A stretch of 64,000 nt of DNA from Leucoraja ocellata (GCA_036785375.1 JAWMAR010000167.1:4650001-4714000), one strand, 5' to 3'; positions 19,215-62,989 are shown, counted from the first letter of the stretch. Program-made: numbers and translations. Notes: generated from the letters alone by a model not told the origin.

Positions 19215-20585
19215 AATGCACATGCATTTGAGAATCACAACAGGCTCTATTTGATCATTTTACCAGTGTTGCCATAAGTGTATTCTTGTCAGATATTTTT
19301 TTTTTATTTAAATGAAATAGCAGTGATTGCAACAAGAAGGGTCAAATCAAACGACCCCAATTAGCAACAAAACACTCACACCAAAGCAAAAACACAGAAT
19401 TAAATTTCTTAATATCCGAAAATATTTTAATGTTTTAAATGCTTCAAATGCAAAAATAAACTGTGTGTACCATTTATACAATTCAGCAATGTATTAAAGC
19501 AGTGAATCGTAAAACCATGTGCCCCTGTGTTGGCCTGGCAATAACCCCGGGAACTCGAGAGGTAACCTGCACACAATTGACGAACCGTTCCACAAGACAT
19601 GGTGAATTTGCTCATCCTACCTTGGGCTCAGATGGGCAGACCTGGCTGTGTCGGGACTGAGTCTGAAGAAGGCTCTCGATCCAAAACGTCACCCATTCCT
19701 TCTATCCAGAAATGCTGCCTGTCCCGCTGAGTTACTCCAGCATTGTGTGCCTGTCTTCTGTGTCAGGATGGATGCAGCAATGTGCATTGAACAAACCCAA
19801 CACATGGCATTGAGAGGTTACATGTTTTTCCTCCAAAGTACAAAATTAATGAATTATGGTTAAAAATAATTACTGGTCAGAGGGTTACCACATGGCCCCA
19901 GCAGTCTATGGTAGTCCTTTTTGGACAATCCTAAATGTCCCCACCCCCCTCTCTTTCTCCATTGCTTTGAACATTATTTTCCCTTTAATTTCCATCCAAC
20001 TCCCTTCTGCCTTCTCCCTTTTACCACCTCCCTTCCAGGGAGATAATTCCAAAACACAAACCGGCTCCTATTTAGTTGTGCCTCATATCCCATCGTACCC
20101 TTGCCCATCTCTTCATTTTCTCAACTAATTCGAACCAATTTCTCTCCTTGAATCCCACAGTGATACTGCACACATCTCAAGATGCATCTATATCCACATT
20201 AAAAATGTACCTACAGTCGTTTGCATTGAGACTGATTGGATGGTAAGGCTAGCTATCTATGGCAGGGATTGATAGTTTTTTGAAATAGTGTTGATTGATG
20301 CTTATAATTTGGTTCTGAAACGATAAAATCCCTGCCGATCATTGAGGATTTACATTGGAACAAACTATAAAACCAATAATAAACACACTTTACATGCCAA
20401 ACATTAAAATAAAGTGTCCAATACTTAATAGTTATAATATTGACTCACGATATTTGATTCCCAATGGATCTGGTGGACTTTTTAACCAAAAAACATAATG
20501 TATTAAACAATTAATCCCAGCTCATTCAGTTCATTGACAGGAAAAATAATATTTAATTATTTTTTTCTGAATTAGAGAGACATTT

Positions 20586-21140
20586 TTATGTAGCTTTTTT
20601 TGAATTAAAAGCTTTGAAGTAAAAGTTTGAGAAAAGACTCAGCATTGTTATACCATACAAGATCCCATAAATGCAGAATCCATGAAAGAGATAGCCCCAT
20701 GTTGCAAGAACCACGTCCATAACAAACTGGAAGATTTGCAGCTGTGTCAATCTTATCTTCCATGTGGGTCGCTGTGATGGATTCACAGCACTCTGGCCAT
20801 AGTAAAAATACAAGAAGATGTGGATAAATGAATTGAAGAGGAGGAAAGGAGCTATGGCTGGCCAGGGGTAGTAATGATAGCACAGGTCACTCAGGAGCAA
20901 CATACTGCAATGATGGTAGACATGAAGGAACGAGATCTGACGGTTCCGATGCCTCAAGACCATGAAGACCGTATCGAGCAACTCCACGTTTTTGACCAGC
21001 CAGTAAATGAGGTAAGCATGCTGCAGTTCTGGAAAAAACTCCTTCTGAAAGATGGAATCTGCCACGCTGAGGCCTTGCACAAAGAGGAAAGTGGCGTACA
21101 GGCTCATGATGCTACAGGCCATGTTGTAGACTAATAGGAT
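20586..21140 (-). CDS. ELOVL-family fatty acid elongase, large terminal coding exon (184 aa + stop)
   Basis: Acceptor ctgcag|ATC at 21141/21140, phase 0. Translation ILLVYNMAC...KNVELLDT...FLHVYHH...NSFIHIFLYFYY...TQLQIFQF...FNSKKAT* contains the ELO motifs KxxExxDT, HxxHH, NxxxHxxxYxYY and TxxQxxQ, and a C-terminal KKxx ER-retrieval signal. Confidence 0.95.
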   Translation of the reverse strand: MLLVYNMACSIMSLYATFLFVQGLSVADSIFQKEFFPELQHAYLIYWLVKNVELLDTVFMVLRHRNRQISFLHVYHHCSMLLLSDLCYHYYPWPAIAPFLLFNSFIHIFLYFYYGQSAVNPSQRPTWKIRLTQLQIFQFVMDVVLATWGYLFHGFCIYGILYGITMLSLFSNFYFKAFNSKKAT

Positions 21141-24100
21141 CTGCAGAATTTAACAAACACAGACAATTACAAGAACTTGTGAGCAGCAACTATTCAAATC
21201 ACATTCTGCTCAACATAACAAATTACATTACCTAAGAAAATTGAATTCATTTAGCTCTCAGCAACGTAATTACAAAAATACATTTGGGATTGAACACAAA
21301 CTAGACTTTTGGATTTAAACGCATAAATTATTTAACCAGAGGCTTTTATCTGTTATTTTACTTTGAGCATCAAGTGCGACCATTTTTGCTGCCACAAACT
21401 CACTCATCTTTTATACAGTTTTAATTCAGATAGAACTCAAAGATGTGACCAAAAAGGTTTGTTGTGTTGCACAGATTAATATTTTGGATTCAGATCCAAT
21501 ATGTTTTAGGTAAAGAATGTGGTTCTGCTTCAAATGGTTAATTGCCTTTTTTTTAATTCTCTCTTCTCATGCTGGAAATGTGACACTTCTGCACAGCTAC
21601 AAGACTGAAATTTCAGCGCTAGATAGTCGGGTGTCATACTTTGTTCAAAATCACCAACAAATGTGATTGAAAAGTCTCCTTGACAATTAGCAGAGGTTTC
21701 AAGGAGGCATTCAAACATAGGGGAAAAAGACACAAACTACAAACCATCGGCAAAGGTCTGAATGGAAATTAGAAGCATTTTTAAGCCATGGAAGGGGATA
21801 TTTAATGGAATGCTGCCTGACCTGCTGAGTTACTCCAGTATTTTGTACCTTTCTTTGGTGGATGGCTCGATCGTAATGCCGTATTATCTTTCCGCTGACT
21901 GGTAAGAATGCCACAGAACCTGTTCACTGTACCTCGGTATATGTGACAATAAACTACACTCAAACGCTGCAGTTCCTCGTTTCTCCATCTATGCTTTCCC
22001 CTTACATTCAACCTCCCAAAGTGCAACATCCTCACACCCGCTCTGAAGACCCCAAGGTCAGGATTGAACTCGGCTCGCTGGAACTATAAGGCCATCACAC
22101 AACCACATTGCCTGTTTTGTTTTTGTTAAAAGTAATCCGACTTGTTCAGCCCCGCAGATCCTTATACAACAGCACACACCACCTCACTTAGCTAGCTTGG
22201 GGTGTACCATCCTTCTCAGGCCTCACTAGAAGCTCGCTGTAGCGAAAGCTGCGCTGAGTTATTTTCTTGCCACGGGACAAAGTCACGGTGACCTCCAGAT
22301 AACAACAATAATGCAATCTCCTGTAATATCATATCCATTACAGGGAGCGAAAGCATCGGGGTAATAAATTAGGGCTCTCCAGGGGCTGCAATAGCTGTCA
22401 GGAAGGAACATCTAGCGAGCAGCAGATATACTGCAGCATTGGGCACTTTAACATATTGTGGCTACGATGGGAGCTCACGGAGGATTTACGCAGCCTTTGC
22501 GTGGCATGAGCAAAATTCGCATGCAAAATTAATACACTTCCAGGGCACTCATCTGCAAACTTCTAATCAAGTCTCATCAAACAAGCTTCCCTCGGTGTTC
22601 AGTGTCACCACTTCCACTGTACCTCACCTTGTTCAATAGCATCCACCTCCAAATCAGAATAGTCAGCTACAGAAGAATACACATCCATGTTACATTGACA
22701 CAAGTTGACAAAAGAAACAAAAAGAGGCCAGCGTAATCACATCTGTCATTGAGTTTTTTCCACAGGTTGGGAAACTTCATCCAAGTTGATTTCCACATTG
22801 AGGAGTCATTGTCAGTGTGGAACACAGTCTGGATATTTCGGATGAAGAATTTCGACCCCAACCAAAATGTCACCTTATCCCTGTTCTGCAGAGATGCTGC
22901 CTGACCTGCTGAGTTACTCCAGCACTTTGTGACTAATTTTTGTAAATCAGCTGCTGCAAGTAAGGATTTCATTGTTCCATTTTTGGTATATTTGACAACT
23001 AAACACTCTTGGCTCTGAGCATCTGTAGTTCCCTGTGCCTACTGGATATTTCAGACTACTCCATGCCCTATTAGCTTGCAAAAATCAGAGGAAAAGTTGA
23101 AAAATGATACATCGACTTTTCAGTAATACTACTCTGAGTACCATAGGATGATGACAAAGTAATTAAATTATAATGAGGCTAAAAGTAGGATTGCACATAA
23201 CTCACTATATTTCTTTTGGAATCAAAGGTGTCACAGCTGACAGACCCATAACACATCCAAGCAGCATTCTCCTCCACAATGTTTAACAGGGCCAGAAACC
23301 TATTTATCCCAGATCTTAAAAAGGATAACGCAACAGCATTTTCAATCTATTTCTACACTAAGAATCCAAAATGTAATATTTGTCTTTCAAAATCAGAGTT
23401 CAGAGCACAGTAAAATGTGTGGGGATATATATTCAAGTCAATGCTATTAAAGCTAATAGTATCTAATTAGAATGCAATTAATGTTGGAAATTGATCTTAA
23501 ATTATTAATGATTTGATATCAATTATTAATCCTTAAATGGCTAATATATTGGTCATGGCTCCAACTGAAAAACTATAATTGCTTGGTTTTGTGTGTTCCT
23601 CCTTTGTCATTCTATGGGTATGGAGTATGCTTGAGGAAAATACATTGCCCCCAAATCAAACACAGTAAACAGAAGCAACTCCTGCTCTGATTAATACTCC
23701 TCTCCTTTGTCATCAGAATAACTAGTAGCCAGAAATTTCATACAAAGTGGGATTATAGGACAGGGTGTTCAAGAAGGAACTGCAGATGCTGGAGAACTGA
23801 AGGTAGACAAAATTGCTGGAGAAACTTAGCGGGTGCGGCAGCATCTATGGAGCGAAGGAAATAGGCAACGTTTCGGGCCGAGGGGAAGGCAGGTTTGATG
23901 TTTCAGGTTGAAGATCTTTCAGATTTACATTGGAACAGCTCACTAGCAGTGGGGTTAAGCCAGCTATTCAATGGGAGTTCAGCTGGCAAACACAGAGTGT
24001 CTGGGCTTGCTAATGGATGGCAGAGCCAACAACGCGCTCTTAAATTATTTTTAACCTTTCAGCCACTGGGAGCCTCAACTCTTCCACCAACATCTGAACA

Positions 24101-24769
24101 AACTAATCATATTTCCTTATGATACAAGGCCATTCAGTCTACGAAGTGTATGCCAGCTCTCAAGTACCATTATCGGTCCCATTACTATTTGCCCACTGAT
24201 CTTCCGCTAACAGGGGTGGCACAGCGGTAGAGTTGCTGCCTCATGGAGCCAGAGACGCCGGTTCGATCCTGACCTCGGGTGCTGTCTGTATGGAGTTTGT
24301 ACGTTCTCCCTGTGACGGCGTGGATTTACTCCGCAGTTTTTTTCCCCCCACATTTCAAAGATGTGTAGGTATGTAGGTTAATTGGCTGTTGATATAAAAT
24401 GCTGGAGTAACTCAGCCGGTGAGGCAGCATCTCTGAAGAGAAGGAATGGACAACGTTTTGGTCCGAAACCCTTCGTCAGACTCATATAGTCTCTATCATC
24501 CAATTGCACTAGGAATTAAATTACATGAGCCTACCCAAATGTGTCTGGGATGTGGGAGGAAAGTGGAGTACCCGGGGGCAACCCACAAGTCAAAGGGGGG
24601 TCATGCAGACTCCACATAGACAGAACTGGAGATGAGGATTGAACCAGGATGGCTGGAGCTATCCTGTTGCAGTGTTAATTGGTGCAACAACATGTCACCA
24701 ATTGCTACATGGTTCAGCATGCCACACCCCTGCCACATTCAACACACTGAGTTCACAGAGTAGCTAAAA

Positions 24770-25070
24770 TGTGTAGGAAGGAACTGCAGATGCTGGTTGA
24801 ATCCGAAGATAGACACAAAAAGCTGGAGTAACTCAGCGGGACAGGCGGCATCTCTGGAGGAAAGGAATAGGTGACGTTTTGGGTCGAGACCCTTCTTCAG
24901 ACTGAGAGTCAGGGGAAAGGGAAATGAGAGGTGTTGACGGTTATATAAAAATATAGAACGAATGAATGAAAGATATGCCAAAAAAGTAATGATGATAAAG
25001 GGAACAGGCCATTGTTAGCTGTGGTCCAGGTGAGAACGAGTTAGAGGCAATGAGACTCAACAAGACGGCT
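24770..25070 (-). mobile_element. Penelope pseudo-LTR, long copy
   Basis: Reverse complement of the 9110-9327 type; hammerhead-like core at 24873-24900. Confidence 0.7.
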
Positions 25071-28000
25071 ACTGCTTGGTATCTTTGCTCGGTCAGATCT
25101 GGAGATGTGAGTTACAGAGAGAGGGTCAGATGGAAAATGCAAGCAGAGGCTTCTCTCCATGTCGAGCTATTGAGTGACGGTGACAGACTCGACAAGCAGG
25201 TTATTTGTCTACTTTCTCCTGCAAGATGCAGGAGCAGCAGCCCAGAAGGAGAAAAATTACTTCATCATGGTGTAAATATTAGGCTGGAGGCCTAGAGGTA
25301 TCAACCTTCATAATGTGTCCAATGACACTGCAGTCCATTGCTACTGCATTTGAATTTCAAATTATTCAGACTATCCAAAAACATCAAACCCCTATGTTTT
25401 AATATAATCCACTTATTTTACACATGTAATATTCAACATTATAATTTTCGCGATAACATTTATTACAGTGGGGAAAAAAAATTGCTCACCATGCGGGCTG
25501 CAGCTCAGACTTATAAAATGGATGGTATTATTCTAAACAGCGCATTAGGAATAAATCAAATGTGACTGTTGTTTAGAAACGGAACAAAAGAAACACATTG
25601 CCACAACATTATTAAAGTCTAAAATTAAACTATTTTTTAAGTGTACGAGAGGCAAGGGAGCCGTTAACAATATAACTATGTAACATTGAGTCCAATACTA
25701 ACTCAGTAAATGCATCATATTCTGGTACCCTTCTGAAATCAATAGCCCCAGGAAAAAGATTTTTTGGAGAAGGCTGAATTTATCAAACAGATTTCGACAA
25801 GATGGCCAATGTCAAATGTTTATATCTCTCTATCGGACTGTGTAACACACTGTGTGGTTTACGAGTGTCTGCCAGCCATTCATAAACATGTAACGTCTGT
25901 GGCTAGGAAATGACACCAGATTTACTGCTTTATTACTCAGCATCTAAAACCATATAAATATAAAAGGGAAAAAAAACCGAGAGAAAGAGGTAAGGGAGAA
26001 AATGACATGGTGAGTCAAGTGAACTACCAGGGAGTGGAATGAAGCCAAATGTTTATTTGCCTGTAGTGTGAACCATGCATTTCCGTTTTTTTTTATTACA
26101 TTGCATCTGGGTCCCTCACGTTCAGTTAAAAGCCACAATAGATGACAAACTCTTAAGCAAATGAACCAAAAACAAATCAACAACAAGCATAAATTTTGTC
26201 TTTTTAAAAATAAAATTCAAAGCACACTTTCTAGTATGTTAAAACCTTGAAGTGGCAAGTTTAAGTTCAGCTTTGTCACATTAAAAGCTAGACTAATGAT
26301 TGCATTTTTGATAATTAACACCTACTTTCTTATTAACGGTCAGCTCACAGTCCATCAGAGGGGACACGGATATCACTCTGATAATCTGATTGTTTCATGG
26401 TCCATGTTAAAAGGCTGCACTGTTAAATATTGCACACCACTCAATAAATGTTATATCTGTAAAATATTGCATACTTATCGATAAATATTATATCGAGCTG
26501 AATTTGCCTGCCCTACAAATCAAATGCATGTGATAAAACGTCGTATTCTATTCGTTGAAAGCTATTCGCTGTATTATTTTTATGATGCTTCAAGTTATAA
26601 TTAATGTAATTCAGAGGTAACAATTATTTACTTCCATCTGAACATGCACTCAAGATGTATTACGGAATATTTTACAGGCTCACATGGGCAGCAATTCCCG
26701 GAAAAGTCGACCTCTAACCATCCTATTTTAAAATTTATTGCACTGCAATTTTGTCCAGGGTTTTTTTGGTGGCGGTTTTGTTTTACTGCTGAGTTTGCAG
26801 TGTTCTGCTGGAACATTTCACAAAGCACCCACGCTCCTTTGGTAGCTTGCCCAGGTTTGCTATTCATCACCTACATGAACGTCACAACATACAGTGGAGC
26901 AGGCGCGTGGGGCATTAAGGCAGTCATCACCCCTGTCCTTACTTTCAAGCAACATTAATGAAATTCATGGTCAAAAACCAATTTCAGTTTAAGGGTCTCG
27001 ACCCTAAACGTCACCCATTCCGTCTCTCCAGAGATGTTGCCTGACCCGCTGAGTTACTCCAGAATTTTGTGTCTATCTTCAGTTATTCTTATTGTGGGTT
27101 TAGAGGACAATTGTAGCCCATTTAGTGTTGCCTGACAGAGAAGACCAGCTGATTTAATTATGATCTGAAGTACGGTTTCTGGAGAAGGGTCTCGACCTGA
27201 AACATCACATATTCCTTTTCTCCAAAGATGCTGCCTGACCCGCAGAGTTACTCCAGCTTTTTTGTGTCTATCTTATGGTCTGGGGTAGAGTGGGTGGTAA
27301 TTTTATACACAGCCACTGGGGGACACACTGGTTTAAAACAGTCACCCTTCCATGCTTTTCTTTCCAGCAAAATCATCTCAAACACACAATATACAGAACA
27401 TTTCCACCTCAGTACCTGATACCACAAAACAAAACCATAACTGACAAAGCCGTCACACACTGGCACCCAACCATCCTGACAGCGACCACATCATTTAGCG
27501 TGGAAGATATAAATATAAAAAATACATTTATTGTTCATCAGTTGGCTAAAAGCAAAATAAGATTGCTAATTGATATAAGTGCTTCCATTGCTACTCGCAC
27601 TGTTAACACAACCCATTATTTATAATTGACACAAATTCCACCCACAATCTGCAATCTATCAGCCTTGTTAATCCATCAAAATTTACTTTTGACAACCAAG
27701 GACAAATGATCAAGTTGCCACCATTACTGTAATTAATTTGATAAGTTTTCTTAAAAAAACGTATTACTCCAATGCGTATATTAACAGTCCCTGTCTGTAT
27801 TTAGCTTGTTCCTGCAGATCATTTGTTACAACACTGTGCAACTGCTACTTAGTAACTCAGAGTAGCTGATTACAGCTGAGTGAGCAATGTAGCAATAAAA
27901 ACTATCGAAATAAATTAGTGTATTACAGAAACACATGTGTCTTCACAATTAATAAATTCCACTCCATCAAACGGTGATTTAATTATGCATTATGTATGTT

Positions 28001-28371
28001 AGGCATGAATCATTCATGTACATTATTACCCAAGTGGGAAAATAGCAAATAGGCATATAAACAGCATACAGGAGTGCTTTTTGTCAAATATAACAGCAGG
28101 GATAATAATTAAAAGGAAAACAGTCAGTCCTAGGAATGCTAATCCTAATACACTTTTAAATAAAGTTTAATATAAAACAGGTCAAGTTTTAAAGTAATCA
28201 CTGGCACAGCTGCGATGAATAATGCAGTGGTAACAATTCTTACTTAATACTGGAATAGATGTCAAAAAAGTAGACTTGCTCGGAGTTTGAAATTTGTAAC
28301 TCAGCGGAATGGAGATATTTACTTGTGAAGGCAAACAGCTAACACCGTCGATGTGGGGTGAAATATTTCAC

Positions 28372-28650
28372 ACTAAATGGCACTTTTTAACCATCTCAGG
28401 AAATCCCCAAGTATCTATCAGTCCATAACCTTCTTCCAAAGTGCAGTCATTGATGTAATGAGGAAACATTGTTGCCAATTTGTGCACCGCAAACTCTCAT
28501 GGTCATGTGATAATGATCAGCTAATATTAAATGACAAGTCAAGGGGCAGTTATTAAAATACTGGGGCTTTTTTATTTTACAGTACCAAGCAATCCCTTGT
28601 GAGTCTGAGGCAAGATGGGAATTGTTTTAACACCTCGACTAAAAGACCTG
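28372..28650 (-). mobile_element. Ancient Deu-domain SINE remnant
   Basis: gccaatttgtgcaccgcaa...gtgataatgatcag resembles the recalled shark Deu-SINE consensus; similar remnants near 14660-14850 (+) and 60240-60360. Confidence 0.45.
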
Positions 28651-29259
28651 CATAAATGTTTTAACTGATTGAAAGGTAGAGCATTTAAACACAGCATTCG
28701 GCCCACCGAGCCCATTCCAACCGTCGATCACCCGACCATCGTACTAGTTCTATGTTATCTTACTTTCTCATCCACTCGCTGCATACCAGGGGCAATTTAA
28801 AGGCCGGTAAGAAAAGGCCGACTCAGAGCTGCATGCCCCGGAGTGTTCCGATACGTCCCGACGCCGGAGTTTCCATCATCCCGACGCTTTGGACATCGGA
28901 CCGTTGGCAGCGGTGACTACTGAGGGATCAAAGGCTTTGACCACCACGGGTGAACAAAGATGACTGAACTTTAGTGCCTTCCATCACATGTGGATTCCAC
29001 TGTGGTAGATGTCTATGTTACATTGTGGTAAATGATATTGTTGCTTTTCACTAGGCATGGGCTGTATGGCAACTCAAATTTCACTGCACCTTAGTTGGTT
29101 TAGTGACAATAAATGCGAACTTGAACTTGAGAGAGAATGCAGGTGTTGGAAACTAACTGCTGGAGGATCTCAGCAGCCAAACAGCATGTGTGGAGGCAGA
29201 GGGAACAGTCATCATTTCAGGTCAGGACCCTGCATCAGGCCTGCCTATCCCTCTGCCTC

Positions 29260-29488
29260 AAATTGACAAAAGGTGCTGGAGTAACTCAGCCTCACTGGAG
29301 AAAAAGGATGGGTGATGTATCAGGTCGTGACCCTTCCTCAGACTCTTAGTAGCCTGAGGAAGAGTCCCGACCTGAAATGACACCCATCCGATTTCTCCAG
29401 AGATGCTGCCTGACCTGCTGAGTTACTCCATCGCTTTGTGACTATCTTTGGTATAAACCAGCACCTGCAGTTCTTCATTTTCTCTTTG
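29260..29488. mobile_element. Fold-back pLTR unit with 12-bp TSD, nested in an older fold-back
   Basis: tccctctgcctc at 29248-59 and 29489-500; two inverted arms. Confidence 0.7.
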
Positions 29489-29972
29489 TCCCTCTGCCTC
29501 TACAGATGCTGCTTGACCCGTTGAGTTCCCCCAGCAGTTTGCCTTTTACTCCCTCAATGAGTCACCAGGGGAACAATTTGTTCCACTTGGCAGAAATGCC
29601 GGTGCAACAACTGGGATTGAACAGTGGCCACAAGGTTACTCATTCAACAAGCAAAAGATACCATGCAATTTATAACAGCTGTAGAGAGATGATCCAACAA
29701 AGCCAATGTGGGGTGTGCAAAAGCAAAGAATGTTCAATTTATGAATTGATCAAGAGTGCAACAAATATATTCCACGATGTTTCCTGTGACTGACTGTAAA
29801 ATAACTGTTTTTGCAAATCACATTCCTGGCTGTCATTTCATCAGAAGGCCAGTCCATAAAATATGACCAAATTAAATTAACTTGTTTTCCATTGCTGAGA
29901 GGATGGGACAGACACGACTGTGAACCAGGCGGGACTGCTGGAGGTGGGATAATGAGCAAGCAACATTCTCAC

Positions 29973-30143
29973 CTTCCGCATCTCCAGGGGTTTGGTGAAC
30001 TTCTGCCAGGATGATGAGAAGAAAATGATGGCCAGGTAAAGGCAAGCCAGTGGCATGGACGGTAAATTCAGGACCCGAATTAAGAAGCTCCCTCTGGTGG
30101 TCGGCTCCGGACTAACAGTCTGCATATTCTCCATGGCAAGATA
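29973..30143 (-). CDS. ELOVL-like elongase, N-terminal coding exon (YLA-MENMQ...PLACLYLAIIFFSSSWQKFTKPLEMRK)
   Basis: Acceptor tttcag|TAT at 30144/30143, strong Kozak gccATGG at 30134, donor AAG|gtgaga at 29973/29972. Phase 0 joins in frame to 21140. Encodes the TM1 'YL..' segment and the 'KP..(L/M)R' motif typical of ELOVL N-termini; 238 aa in total from ATG 30134. Confidence 0.88.
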
Positions 30144-31623: not shown

Positions 31624-32531
31624 TTTTCTTCACAATTATATATTTTTTGATCCCTTCTTTCTAGTTACCTTGTGCTTTATATGATAAGTTGCATAAGTCC
31701 CCAAGTCTGAAAGCACCTCCTTAAAGTCCTTTGGTCAAATCTGTGGAGAAAGAGGAGCACAAGGTAAGGCCACAACAGTAACTGTGTTTCATTAAGCTGC
31801 ATTTTCAAATGAAAAAATGTAAATTCAATTGCCGAAAACCTCGCGGTTGCTTCTGAAAAACTACCGAGGTTCATGAAAGCCTTTGCTTGCATGGTGTCTA
31901 GTCAAAGAAAAATCTATACATGATTACAATACATGTAAACTAGACTGTACATGATTGCCTGATTGGAGAGGGGAGAAGAGAGGGTGACAGAGGTGAGACT
32001 GGTCCTTGATTACATTACTGGCTTTGTCGAGGCAGTGTGAAGTCTATGTAGATGGACTCTATGAAAGGGAGGACGGTGTGGACTATATCCACAACTCTCT
32101 GCAATAGTTTTTGCAGTCTTGGATGTCGCTGTCCCCAAACCATGCTGTGATGCATCCCAATAAAAAATGCTTTCACCCGCATATCTGCAGAAGTTGGTGA
32201 GGGTTGTTGGGGACATGTCGAACATCCCAAGCTTTGAGGAACTAGAGGCGTTTCTTTGCCATAACTTTGATGTGACTGGTCAACAACAAATTGCTGGTAA
32301 TAGTTATGAAGAACTTGAAGCTTTCGACCACCTCTATTTCAGCACCATCTGTGTACACTGGGGTGTGTGTACCACTTGGCTTCCCGAAGGAGGAGAGCTG
32401 TGGACCCCCAGCAGGACCATAAACAAGACTTGTCAAAGGGCGGGATGAGCTTCTAGCGAGCCAACGGCCATCCACACTTCAGTAGAAGTTGCGATCACTG
32501 TCGTACACGGCATTGTATGGAACGATGATAA

Positions 32532-55057: not shown

Positions 55058-55306
55058 CTAAGTTTTGTTGTCTTCAAAGTCCTTCACTGCATCTCTTTGT
55101 TGCCTGCTTGAGGTGCTTTCAGATGCAGGAATCGCCTCGTTCTTTTTCAGTGTGGGGGAGCTTTTATCAGTCCTCTTTTCAGCGTTTTGCTGAAACACAC
55201 TAGCATCCACGAACATGTCGGGGATGTCACTACCAAAATAAATCTTGCTGTTTGCCGATATTGCTTGATATTTAACCATCTCCAGATATTCTTTAGTCAG
55301 TTTCAT
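55058..55306 (-). CDS. erlin1: Erlin (ER lipid raft-associated, SPFH family), terminal coding exon
   Basis: Acceptor aacag|ATG at 55307/55306; [34 protein letters not shown]...* matches the erlin C-terminus. [11 protein letters not shown] is closer to ERLIN1 (FGSNIPNMFVD) than to ERLIN2 (FGKDIPNMFMD). Confidence 0.9.
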
Positions 55307-56825
55307 CTGTTAGGAATGAACAATGGGAAAATATAGAAATGCTCAATTTATATTTGAATTTGATTGCGCAGAAGCATGTAATTAATGGATGGCAAGAAAG
55401 CAAGATCCTTTCCATTATTGTCTTTTCAACCATTAAAAAAAAAATTGTATATTTGTAAAATAATACACAAATTCTAAAGTAGTGCATTTTTCCTGACATT
55501 TGCCAATGGAGGTACCTTTGACTGGATAACAAAAACATGCCAAGTATCTAACTGATTGCAAATCAAAATGTTTAGTAAAGAGATCTTCAATTTCATAATT
55601 CAGATAAGGCAGTGCAAATTTACCTTTGTTTGAACTTTATGCTAACGTTGTTAGTTAAACAAACTAGAAATGTATTGTAGGTTTACCCACACCTCAAGTA
55701 CTACAACAGTGCAAGGCAGCAACCCACCACCACCACCACCACCTTCCATGGGGCGACTAGGGACAGGCAATTAAATGCTGGCTCAGTCTGCAAAGCCCGT
55801 ATCACTTCGATGAATATAAAAGGGGCTGGATAAGAATATTACCTTAGCTTGCTATTATTATGCACTGTGGTACAAGATATAGTAGGAAACAGCAGATCTA
55901 AATTTGAAGAAGACCAATGCACAGATGAATGGCCAAACAAAGAAGGCAATGGTGGTAACTTTAAACAGACAGGAAGGCAAAGATATTGAGCCTACAGATG
56001 ATAGACAAAGGTCGGGCATGCATGTCAACAATTAAATAGGGCCAAGATACTAGGGTTTAAGGGTTTGGTGCAAATTACTAGCTCAGCCTGATCAACATTC
56101 CAGGTTGATATGGAGACAGTACTCACCTGTTTGCTTTTCTTTGAATAGTATTACCGACATCAATGCTTTTCAATATCTTCATATAGTATATTTTTAGTAT
56201 ATATCTCACTACTTTAGCACAACAGATACACATTCAAAAAGCTGAAATAATTTATAGTTTCTGACCTTGCAATGCTATTCCTTTAAATAACAAATGATTT
56301 AGATTGCATATCCATTATGCAGAGTGCCTAGCAATCAGACTTGCTTTTTCCTCGTACCAAGTTTAAATGTGGTTTACGACTGTACATAACTGCCCCAGGA
56401 ATAATATACTGCTTATAAAGGAAGCCTGACATCTTTAACAAGTTAATTGTGTGCAGTTTCTGCAATGTCGCTCTAAATTTCTATCACACTCTTCAGGTAA
56501 ATTAGCAGGTGACAAAATGCAAAATGAACAATGGAACCATGTAAACACAATTTTAGCACTGCAACATTAAAATAAAATCCCGATAATCAATAAAACTGCC
56601 TTTATCTTCTCTAACCACCTGTTCTAATTGTAATAGAAACATTTATAAAATGTCCATAAAGCATAAGAGCATGCTGAGAAAGCCCCGGGATAGCATTTAA
56701 AGGTCACTGTTGAGTTCCTTGCAGCCATGGATGTAAAATCCTCACCGTTATTAGCATTTATACGGCAAGACCACATTACTGTTTGTACTTTCACAATTAT
56801 CCATGGACATTAGGTAATTTCATAC

Positions 56826-60040: not shown

Positions 60041-61135
60041 TTAGGCCATTCGACGCATCGAGTCCATTCTGCCATTCAATCATGCTGATCTGTCTTTCCC
60101 ACTCAACCCCATTGTCCTGCCTTCTCCCCGAAATAAGACGAGAAATAGACTTAATGTTTGAGGTCAGAGACACACTCAGAATCTGCAGTGTTTTTGTTTT
60201 TCACTTACTGGGAAAAACATCCTGGTTCTATACAATCACTGGATCATGAGATGTCTCCCAAGTTTAACAACACATCCAAAAGATTGCACATTTAATGCAG
60301 CACTCTAAAAGTACACTATTTGTGTGCTGAAGTCTCTTGAGTGTGATGTGAACCTGCAGTAACTAACTCATCACTGTTCTACTATCTAGGCAGTAAAATG
60401 TCATGCTTTGAAATTAATTGTGTTCAATCTTCACAGATCATAACTTCAGTGCCTCAGCTTGTAATTAAATCATTTAAGGGACTGAAATAATTCACTAGAG
60501 CAAACACAGACACCAAGCACTTTTTGCTGGACTCATGTTCGTGCAAAAGTAAACCAACACATCTGGGAAAGAGCCAAAGAATTCAGTCGAACTACAATTA
60601 CTCATTTGTGCCTTTAGGGCGTGGGAGGTCAAACTGAAATAAAACCATAAAAGGCTGGAAACAGCAACATCTGTGGACAGAGGTTGGGGTTAAAGGTTCG
60701 GGTCAATTATTATTCTTTATAAGAAAAATTTGTAAAGAAGGCATATTTAAACTTGTAAGATAACCTTTAGAATGGAAAGTACATGGAATATGTGTGATAG
60801 TGCAGATACTGAGATAAGGCAGACAGCACAGACTGATGTTAACCAGCTGAGTGGATTGAAGGCTTAGCTGGGGAGGATTAAATAGACGGAGGGGAAACAA
60901 AAAGAGAAAATAAGCCTGCTGGAACTGTGCGAAACGGAGCACAATAATTGTAGGAAATCCGGTATAAAGGAGAATTCTGGGGTAGATCAGGAAGTCCAGC
61001 GGTGTCTGTGGAGTGAGAAAAATCTAGTTACAGAGATTGAAAAGCAAAAATAAAGAGGCAAATGCTGGAAATCTGAATCCGAAGAAACCCTCAGAAGATC
61101 AAGCAGCATCTGTGGAGAGGAAAGCAGAGCTTCCT

Positions 61136-61186
61136 CTCGTTTTCTTTCTGTTTCAGCCTCTACAACCCTTTGCCGCTGTTCAGAAA
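61136..61186 (-). pseudogene. Partial duplicate of the erlin 92-bp exon inside the downstream intron
   Basis: Aligns to 62663-62719 with 46/51 identities plus a 6-nt gap; translates [16 protein letters not shown]; no clear splice sites. Confidence 0.75.
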
Positions 61187-61274
61187 CGGTGAAGGCCAAC
61201 CACCCTTCAGCAGGTCATTAACGGTATATTCAGCTCATCTTCTTGCTGGGATTCCCTGCTTCGACATCACCGTG

Positions 61275-62653: not shown

Positions 62654-62745
62654 CAATAATAGCTCGTTTTCTTTCTGTCTCAGCCTCTTGCTCTACAACT
62701 TTTTGCCTCTGTGCAGAAATCAGCAACTTTGTCTTCTCTCCCTCC
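62654..62745 (-). CDS. erlin1: Erlin internal exon, 92 bp ([30 protein letters not shown])
   Basis: ttttag|G acceptor and TTG|gtacgt donor; matches erlin [27 protein letters not shown]. The gene continues beyond the window end. Confidence 0.92.
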
Positions 62746-62989
62746 CTAAAATAAAAACAAACTGTAAGGTAGAAAGAAAAAAAAAGACATCCACCAGTAA
62801 ACGACAATGTTTGTTGCAATAATTACCTTGCATGTGGCAACAATTTAAATGTGGACAATATCTGTACTCTAGACAGACAACAGGTCCAAAGTGACAGACA
62901 CTGACCCCTCGTATTAACAGACCTCTTTATAACATTATTTCATGGAATGACCATTAGGTGGATGGAGTGAATTGTGTTTTTGACACATT

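Follow-up and report, generated by a model that had tools for sequence, protein, structure and literature searches.

A divergent ELO-family gene of the skate Leucoraja ocellata and its probable place in an apparently unnamed ancient elongase lineage

The vertebrate elongase repertoire is described as ELOVL1-8 in the accessible text of two accounts (PMC8392482, PMC11286186). For human ELOVL7, the structure paper, in the text available, assigns individual residues their roles in catalysis and coenzyme A (CoA) binding and describes a disulfide that links the loops between transmembrane helices 2 and 3 (TM2-3) and between TM6 and TM7 (10.1101/2020.11.11.378570). Among invertebrates, an 'Elovl-like' protein of the sea urchin Hemicentrotus pulcherrimus clusters with no human or zebrafish Elovl (PMC11750391, available text), and an actiniarian 'Novel ElovlA' has been reported as an uncharacterised, actiniarian-specific clade sister to all ELOVL1/7/2/5/4 (PMC6010785, available text). 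Here we describe an elongase gene in a 64,000-nucleotide stretch of the Leucoraja ocellata genome (GCA_036785375.1 JAWMAR010000167.1:4650001-4714000; hereafter the window, with positions counted from its first letter), which was originally predicted to encode a divergent ELOVL elongase. We think it probable that the gene belongs to an ancient lineage that is chondrichthyan-only among vertebrates and likely lost in bony vertebrates, and that its predicted product is an elongase of the endoplasmic reticulum (ER) with a short acyl pocket and a preference for C16-C20 saturated, monounsaturated or unusual acyl-CoAs over standard polyunsaturated fatty acids (PUFA).

The skate gene and its product

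Six-frame scans and reading of the splice sites place the gene on the minus strand in two coding exons, 30134-29973 and 21140-20586. The joined coding sequence is 717 nt long and encodes 238 aa, with one stop, at its end. All ELO motifs fall in a single minus-strand frame (21149-20589). The features of the gene are as follows.

31669..31740, minus strand: upstream exon, likely 5' untranslated region (UTR), with an AG acceptor and a GT donor, an in-frame TGA near its start and no in-frame ATG
29973..30143, minus strand: first coding exon, with 9 nt of UTR, the ATG at 30134, 54 codons (N-terminus and TM1) and a phase-0 donor, GTGAGA
21141..29972, minus strand: the sole intron of the coding region, 8.8 kb, repeat-rich, with GT..AG ends
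20586..21140, minus strand: terminal coding exon, 184 codons and TAA, covering TM2-TM7, HVYHH (H127, H130, H131), N157, H161, T186/Q189/Q192 and the C-terminal KKAT
20039..20585, minus strand: 3' UTR, of at least this extent; contig 18 of run X5 covers 20039-21140, and ATTAAA occurs at 20557 and 19989

The 29973/21140 junction lies inside single contigs of two of the four runs examined (X5 record 18 and X1 record 7, from two studies; the RNA status of both is only guessed). In both runs depth is zero across unique intron bins, and the DNA-like run X15 covers the same bins. Run X24, the one run recorded as RNA, read to 5%, has a depth of about 1-2 on the coding exon, and at that 5% the junction was absent among the joints shown. 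Six of the seven coding differences listed for X5 are synonymous. The spliced model is identical at all 238 residues to four Logan proteins (P0273-P0276) and differs by 1 residue from Leucoraja erinacea XP_055517680 and by 12 from Amblyraja radiata XP_032868879, which places the window in a rajid skate.

Another Logan protein, P0001, has an N-terminal extension whose residues 2-16 are a 100% match to 31713-31669. Logan forms of 253-257 aa were rejected as true N-termini: within the UTR exon they start, after an in-frame stop, at GTG or TTG. Because these longer forms begin at non-ATG codons behind that stop, we treat the 31740-31669 exon, which lies beyond the span first predicted, as likely 5' UTR. 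It also carries a short out-of-frame upstream open reading frame of an ATG, four codons and a stop.

The skate gene is an intact, spliced member of the ELO family. The terminal exon matches Pfam ELO (PF01151) at E 8e-36 and 124 bits, against a cut-off of 27, and the motifs KxxExxDT, HxxHH, NxxxHxxMYxYY and TxxQxxQ are all found in the protein, with L164 at the M of HxxMYxYY. The original prediction had given an intact frame of about 238-242 aa with ELO motifs and a KKxx end, and had quoted the strings HVYHHCSMLLLSDL, FVQGLSVADSIFQKEFFPELQHA and HIFLYFYY. All three strings are present, as are the motifs and a KKAT end in an intact frame; the length is 238 aa, not 242. An AlphaFold2 model of the Leucoraja orthologue (predicted local distance difference test 79.5, predicted template modelling score 0.76) has the seven-TM, six-helix-barrel fold and matches ELOVL7 6y7f with a template modelling score of 0.77 (E 3e-8); a search of the ESM Atlas returned generic ELO clusters only. 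We consider it highly probable that the product is an active condensing enzyme.

Class separation, distribution and origin

To place the protein we used a first tree from FastTree (199 rows, after removal of 74 partial proteins from 273) and a maximum-likelihood tree from IQ-TREE (LG+G4, 78 hand-picked rows, 239 columns). In the IQ-TREE result the nine chondrichthyan rows form one clade with support 100/99, the chimaera branching first, and this clade sits in a 45-row group with invertebrate and unnamed deep sequences. A 100/99 branch splits the group from ELOVL2/5, 4, 8-like, 1/7 and microbial-type elongases, and FastTree is concordant. Approximately unbiased (AU) tests rejected every canonical grouping into which the chondrichthyans were forced: with vertebrate ELOVL2/5 (p 4e-45), with vertebrate ELOVL4, represented by one named vertebrate row (p 5e-67), with ELOVL8-like, represented by two frog rows (p 1e-4), and with ELOVL1/7 (p 4e-41), at a cost of 207-221 log-likelihood units. 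The frog rows are named 'elongase 4-like', and we take them to be ELOVL8 in view of their tree position. For the classes tested, the AU tests refute identity with ELOVL2/5, 4, 8-like or 1/7. The misfit to canonical vertebrate classes and the closer relation to invertebrate ELO proteins, both proposed originally, are thus upheld by tree and AU tests alike, and a separate ancient elongase class seems to us nearly certain.

The names in the databases tell otherwise. NCBI labels the chondrichthyan orthologues 'ELOVL5', 'ELOVL5-like' or 'ELOVL4-like', and the skate protein has the PUFA-subfamily motif Q-x-S-x-L-H-x-x-H-H, both of which would fit a canonical vertebrate elongase that has diverged, such as ELOVL5 or ELOVL4. 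We regard this as extremely improbable. Besides the rejection of all four groupings, the skate protein is 43-54% identical to the invertebrate rows of its clade, corals, molluscs and amphioxus among them, and 21-32% identical to canonical ELOVLs (true ELOVL2/5, 4, 8-like and 1/7). It matches human ELOVL7 at E 5e-13, compared with 3.5e-95 for a true 1/7-like protein. Amphioxus, moreover, has a separate, characterised Elovl2/5 (ALZ50284) that is placed elsewhere in the tree. The plain 'ELOVL5' label is also borne by clade members from chimaera (XP_007896740), oyster (XP_034312036), sea urchin (XP_011669851) and Nematostella (P0114), none of which is the true Elovl2/5 gene.

The searches covered protein collections alone. 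The terminal exon, used as query, drew 185 candidates, of which 157 were scored and the best 120 listed. Among these matches are nine named rays, sharks and chimaera at 74-85% identity, followed by amphioxus, molluscs, corals, hemichordates, a brachiopod and echinoderms at about 47-60%; none of the 120 is a named bony vertebrate. A profile of 11 chondrichthyans, two amphioxus and one hemichordate gave 2256 matches among 7030 candidates, and by manual count 64 of the best 120 have names and 56 are unnamed. Its named rows in the best 120 of 2256 include no bony vertebrate, cyclostome, tunicate, arthropod, nematode or cephalopod. The nesting in a vertebrate ELOVL orthogroup and the bony orthologues that would have told against the original prediction thus appear neither in the tree nor, under a name, in the best 120 of either search. 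As a control of sensitivity, an invertebrate query run with the same tool recovered teleost and frog ELOVL7 at 53-54% identity. The chondrichthyan orthologues are 238 aa long in rays, sharks and chimaera, and the nine aligned rows are 70-95% identical to the skate protein. In a full HMMER scan of 50% representatives, canonical elongases came in no stronger than E 1e-22; among them are ELOVL5 (Aotus), ELOVL4 (Columba), amphioxus Elovl2/5 and a hypothetical protein from a primate that we take to be ELOVL2.

From this distribution we are fairly confident that the class is absent from bony vertebrates, and it was likely lost there. It is unlikely, though well short of negligible, that a copy survives in cyclostomes or in early-branching bony fishes, either evolving fast or lacking annotation. 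The restriction to protein collections with the best 120 matches listed, many of them unnamed, leaves room for such a copy. Yet outside chondrichthyans no collected protein exceeds 63.4% identity to any chondrichthyan row over at least 150 aa, 37 unnamed genomic calls include no sister of the chondrichthyans, and the control recovers bony-vertebrate proteins at 53% identity. At the other end, one deep clade member comes from the diplonemid Artemidia motanka (a single transcriptome record, with contamination possible), which suggests that the lineage extends beyond animals. Given this protist relative, it looks older than originally supposed. Deep branches of the clade include P0151, P0158, P0169, P0176, P0140, P0149 and P0155, one of them the diplonemid. 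Among the matches listed, the freshwater bivalves Potamilus and Dreissena possess the gene, and several corals, gastropods and crinoids have at least two copies.

The same 37 unnamed calls, mostly on genomic contigs, also allowed the intron layout to be judged, from protein sequences and not from DNA. Fourteen of them have an intron-like tail and a Q just before the residues where the skate terminal exon begins, 22 start with a Met located at that TM2 position or past it, and one reads through; all 37 are unbroken across the catalytic domain, and some pair with oyster, Gigantopelta and Capitella. The phase-0 intron position of the skate gene thus appears to recur in molluscs and an annelid, and this points to a bilaterian ancestor that already had the two-exon layout. 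Since the intron appears to be shared, the gene probably came down by inheritance and not by transfer. A horizontal transfer into the chondrichthyan stem, from a cnidarian or some other marine invertebrate, or a retrocopy arising there would account for the patchy vertebrate distribution, for one exon holding most of the domain and for the weak grouping of chondrichthyans with cnidarians, not amphioxus (81/88 in the IQ-TREE result; SH 90 in the analysis of the 37 genomic calls). However, a grouping of chondrichthyans with amphioxus is not rejected (AU p 0.22), resolution inside the clade being poor, the gene is present in all three invertebrate deuterostome groups sampled, and the intron-like start shared by 14 of the 37 calls, including oyster-, Gigantopelta- and Capitella-like ones, makes the two-exon layout look ancestral. 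We consider transfer or retrocopy quite improbable.

The neighbour on the upstream side is an ERLIN gene, on the same strand and about 23 kb away. The original prediction had named erlin1 as the neighbour, and ERLIN exons were indeed found there:

55061-55309, minus strand: ERLIN last exon (Erlin-1 at E 8e-14, Erlin-2 at 3e-11)
about 62655-62750, minus strand: ERLIN internal exon, by ERLIN match
about 61100-61190, minus strand: a further, short copy of the 'EAETERK' stretch of the ERLIN exon, lying 1.5 kb from the genuine one and perhaps a duplicated exon in decay

This neighbour raises the possibility of a shark counterpart of ELOVL3/6, the saturated and monounsaturated elongases. In the human genome ELOVL3 shares 10q24 with ERLIN1, and the WW pair that follows the His box in other classes is likewise missing from ELOVL3/6. 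Against this, the skate box reads HVYHH, whereas the saturated/monounsaturated subfamily is defined by H-W/T-x-H-H (cited in PMC11750391, available text). HWYHH occurs in one fragment among the 546 proteins collected, and therefore no ELOVL3/6-type protein stands among the 150 best matches of the full HMMER scan, in which ELOVL2, 4 and 5 did rank; none of the searches recovered an ELOVL3/6 sequence. An ELOVL3/6 identity is very improbable in our view. By its sequence, then, the skate protein is placed outside ELOVL1, 2, 4, 5, 7 and 8 by the tree and outside 3/6 by the motif.

Elsewhere in the window, 102 stop-to-stop frames were scanned with Pfam (72 from the minus strand at 1-18.2 kb and 30 elsewhere, of 553 unmasked frames in total) and gave nothing below E 0.01; carboxypeptidase-N motifs revealed no downstream neighbour, and no gene besides these was recognised. 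Internal repeats make up about 26% of the window, mostly as short interspersed elements with very deep read coverage.

Predicted catalysis, acyl pocket and substrates

The catalytic core is conserved. All nine chondrichthyan rows have the same residue at the ELOVL7 catalytic positions K124, D130, H147, H150, H151, N177, H181, Q211 and Q214 and at the CoA-binding positions N72, R137, Y187, Y188, K204, T208 and F253. From these residues and the fold match we infer ping-pong condensation through an acyl-H130. Going by ELOVL7, acyl-CoA would enter the TM2-7 tunnel; H130 (H150 in ELOVL7), primed by H131 and D110, would accept the acyl chain as an acyl-imidazole, and CoA would depart. Malonyl-CoA would then be decarboxylated and condensed to give a 3-ketoacyl-CoA, helped by N157 and H161. 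Retention in the ER would be the task of KKAT.

The pocket end and the lumenal loops differ. S138-D139 replaces W158-W159 of ELOVL7, in line with the absence of the WW pair predicted originally. Position 139 is acidic in 9/9 chondrichthyan and 20/22 invertebrate rows and W in 25/25 canonical animal rows. C/T141 replaces G161 and I150 replaces G170, position 150 being I, V or M in 31/31 clade rows versus G, A, S, T or K in canonical elongases. L164 is found in all 31 animal clade rows, versus M (ELOVL7 M184) in all 25 canonical ones. The span from TM2 to TM3 is 44 residues, compared with 51-54 in canonical elongases, and its loop has a Cys in none of the nine chondrichthyan rows, in 1/22 invertebrate clade rows and in 25/25 canonical animal rows, 11/11 ELOVL1/7 among them. 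The short, Cys-free loop had been noted in the original prediction, and the lumenal disulfide of ELOVL7 with which it was compared is stated in the available text of the structure paper. The TM6-7 span (Q214-F253) has 32 residues versus 37-41, and its Cys is kept as C210 in 31/31 clade rows, with no TM2-3 partner. Going by these substitutions, the closed tunnel end would have been rebuilt, with shorter lumenal loops and the disulfide partner gone. By way of speculation, the pocket may instead be closed off by D139 paired with H207.

Compared with ELOVL2, ELOVL5 is limited by the bulky residue that it has at the F238 position. The skate protein has F209 there, and the position is F or Y in 31/31 animal clade rows; together with Ile150, this suggests a pocket suited to chains of C20 or less. 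Tentatively, and with less than even confidence, we name C16-C20 saturated, monounsaturated or otherwise unusual acyl-CoAs, over standard PUFA, as the likeliest substrates.

A plainer account is that the gene belongs to the same ancient class and encodes an ordinary, redundant C18-C20 PUFA elongase, lost since ELOVL5 covers the job. The PUFA-subfamily motif and the PUFA-type elongases that are its nearest outgroups in the tree fit this account, as do the traces of C18 and C20 elongation given for the sea-urchin 'Elovl-like' (PMC11750391, available text). In the same text those yeast conversions of C18/C20 PUFA are at most 1.1%, with none of C22. The pocket residues and loops are, moreover, consistently unlike those of all canonical PUFA elongases, and amphioxus keeps the clade gene alongside its Elovl2/5. 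We judge a redundant PUFA elongase unlikely but deserving of real weight.

Several points weigh against the reading we prefer, that of an ancient, chondrichthyan-only class with a short pocket and substrates other than standard PUFA. The tree holds neither ELOVL3/6 nor shark canonical ELOVLs and was built under LG+G4 with no mixture model, and within it the chondrichthyans join cnidarians weakly, not amphioxus. Since the best 120 of 2256 matches are listed and names are lacking for 56 of those 120, as for 13 of the 14 deep tree rows, cyclostomes or bony fishes may have a divergent copy. ELOVL7 R266 has no exact counterpart in the skate protein, K235/K236 being close by, and the register of F209 adjoins a 5-residue deletion. 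The motif ahead of the His box is of the PUFA-subfamily type. The sea-urchin 'Elovl-like' (OR753999) is a probable orthologue by elimination. Its low activity in yeast is not diagnostic, because Elovl2/5-like, 4-like and 8-like were also weak, under 6%, in the available text of that study (PMC11750391). The same text gives 16:1/18:1 activity in yeast for Elovl6-like C only, a restriction that weighs against a plain monounsaturated role of Elovl-like.

A bolder version would make the gene a ninth vertebrate class kept in chondrichthyans, of pre-bilaterian and perhaps pre-animal origin and lost in the bony-vertebrate stem, whose disulfide-free, re-capped pocket makes the acyl chains of a lipid class common to sharks and marine invertebrates (ether lipids, or non-methylene-interrupted or branched chains). 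We hold this as doubtful.

Significance and comparison with known elongases

A further class, 238 aa long from chimaera to skates and common to corals, molluscs, echinoderms and amphioxus, would alter the set of elongases reconstructed for the earliest jawed vertebrates and would mark a loss in bony vertebrates. Because of the ELOVL5 and ELOVL4-like labels in the databases, such as those on Callorhinchus XP_007896740 and the oyster protein, expression studies may confuse the gene with a PUFA elongase. With its catalytic core unchanged and its pocket end and lumenal loops different, the class offers a natural test of how chain length is set and of the need for the lumenal disulfide. For the unusual lipids found in sharks and in marine invertebrates, it is also a specific gene to consider as a candidate.

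Our literature search met no article that treats a gene of this kind from sharks or skates; subscription reviews and supplements could hold a mention. Neither the name 'elovl9' nor the accessions of 12 clade members were met in article texts, figures and supplements lying outside that scope. The skate gene is unmentioned in the available text of the chordate Elovl2/5 (PMC4746653) and Elovl8 (PMC8392482) papers, and the available parts of PMC4550275, PMC12405942, PMC11286186 and PMC13134332 hold no identifiable account of it. We regard the enzyme as one of a known kind whose vertebrate subfamily apparently has no name.

The invertebrate side of the lineage has probably been glimpsed in print already. 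The Hemicentrotus 'Elovl-like' has the PUFA motif, as do the sea-urchin members of the clade (S. purpuratus XP_011669851, Lytechinus and Diadema), and probably belongs to the same clade. It was described without a vertebrate counterpart, and chondrichthyan sequences go unmentioned in the available methods (PMC11750391). 'Novel ElovlA', whose published position fits our tree, probably belongs there as well, and Nematostella has two members of the skate clade. The 'Novel ElovlA' clade was reported as confined to actiniarians, whereas the one found here spans corals, spiralians, deuterostomes and chondrichthyans.

Among vertebrate proteins, ELOVL2/5, ELOVL4 and ELOVL8 resemble the skate protein in the PUFA-subfamily motif before HxxHH, and their names are those the databases give to its orthologues. 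The skate protein differs from them in its 26-32% identity, in lacking WW and in the AU rejections. In the main text available, elovl8 is located near elovl1 or the Kcna cluster and 'erlin' has 0 occurrences (PMC8392482), whereas the skate gene adjoins ERLIN. Human ELOVL7 (6y7f) shares the seven-TM fold (score 0.77), the His box and the catalytic and CoA-binding residues. It stands apart from the skate protein at 27% identity, with W158/W159/G161/G170/M184 where the skate has S/D/C/I/L, with a TM2-3 span of 52 residues against 44, with a Q214-F253 span of 37-39 against 32 and with the TM2-3 Cys for the lumenal disulfide that the skate lacks. The skate protein also has a shorter N-terminus and tail, and it falls in a separate clade (AU p 4e-41).

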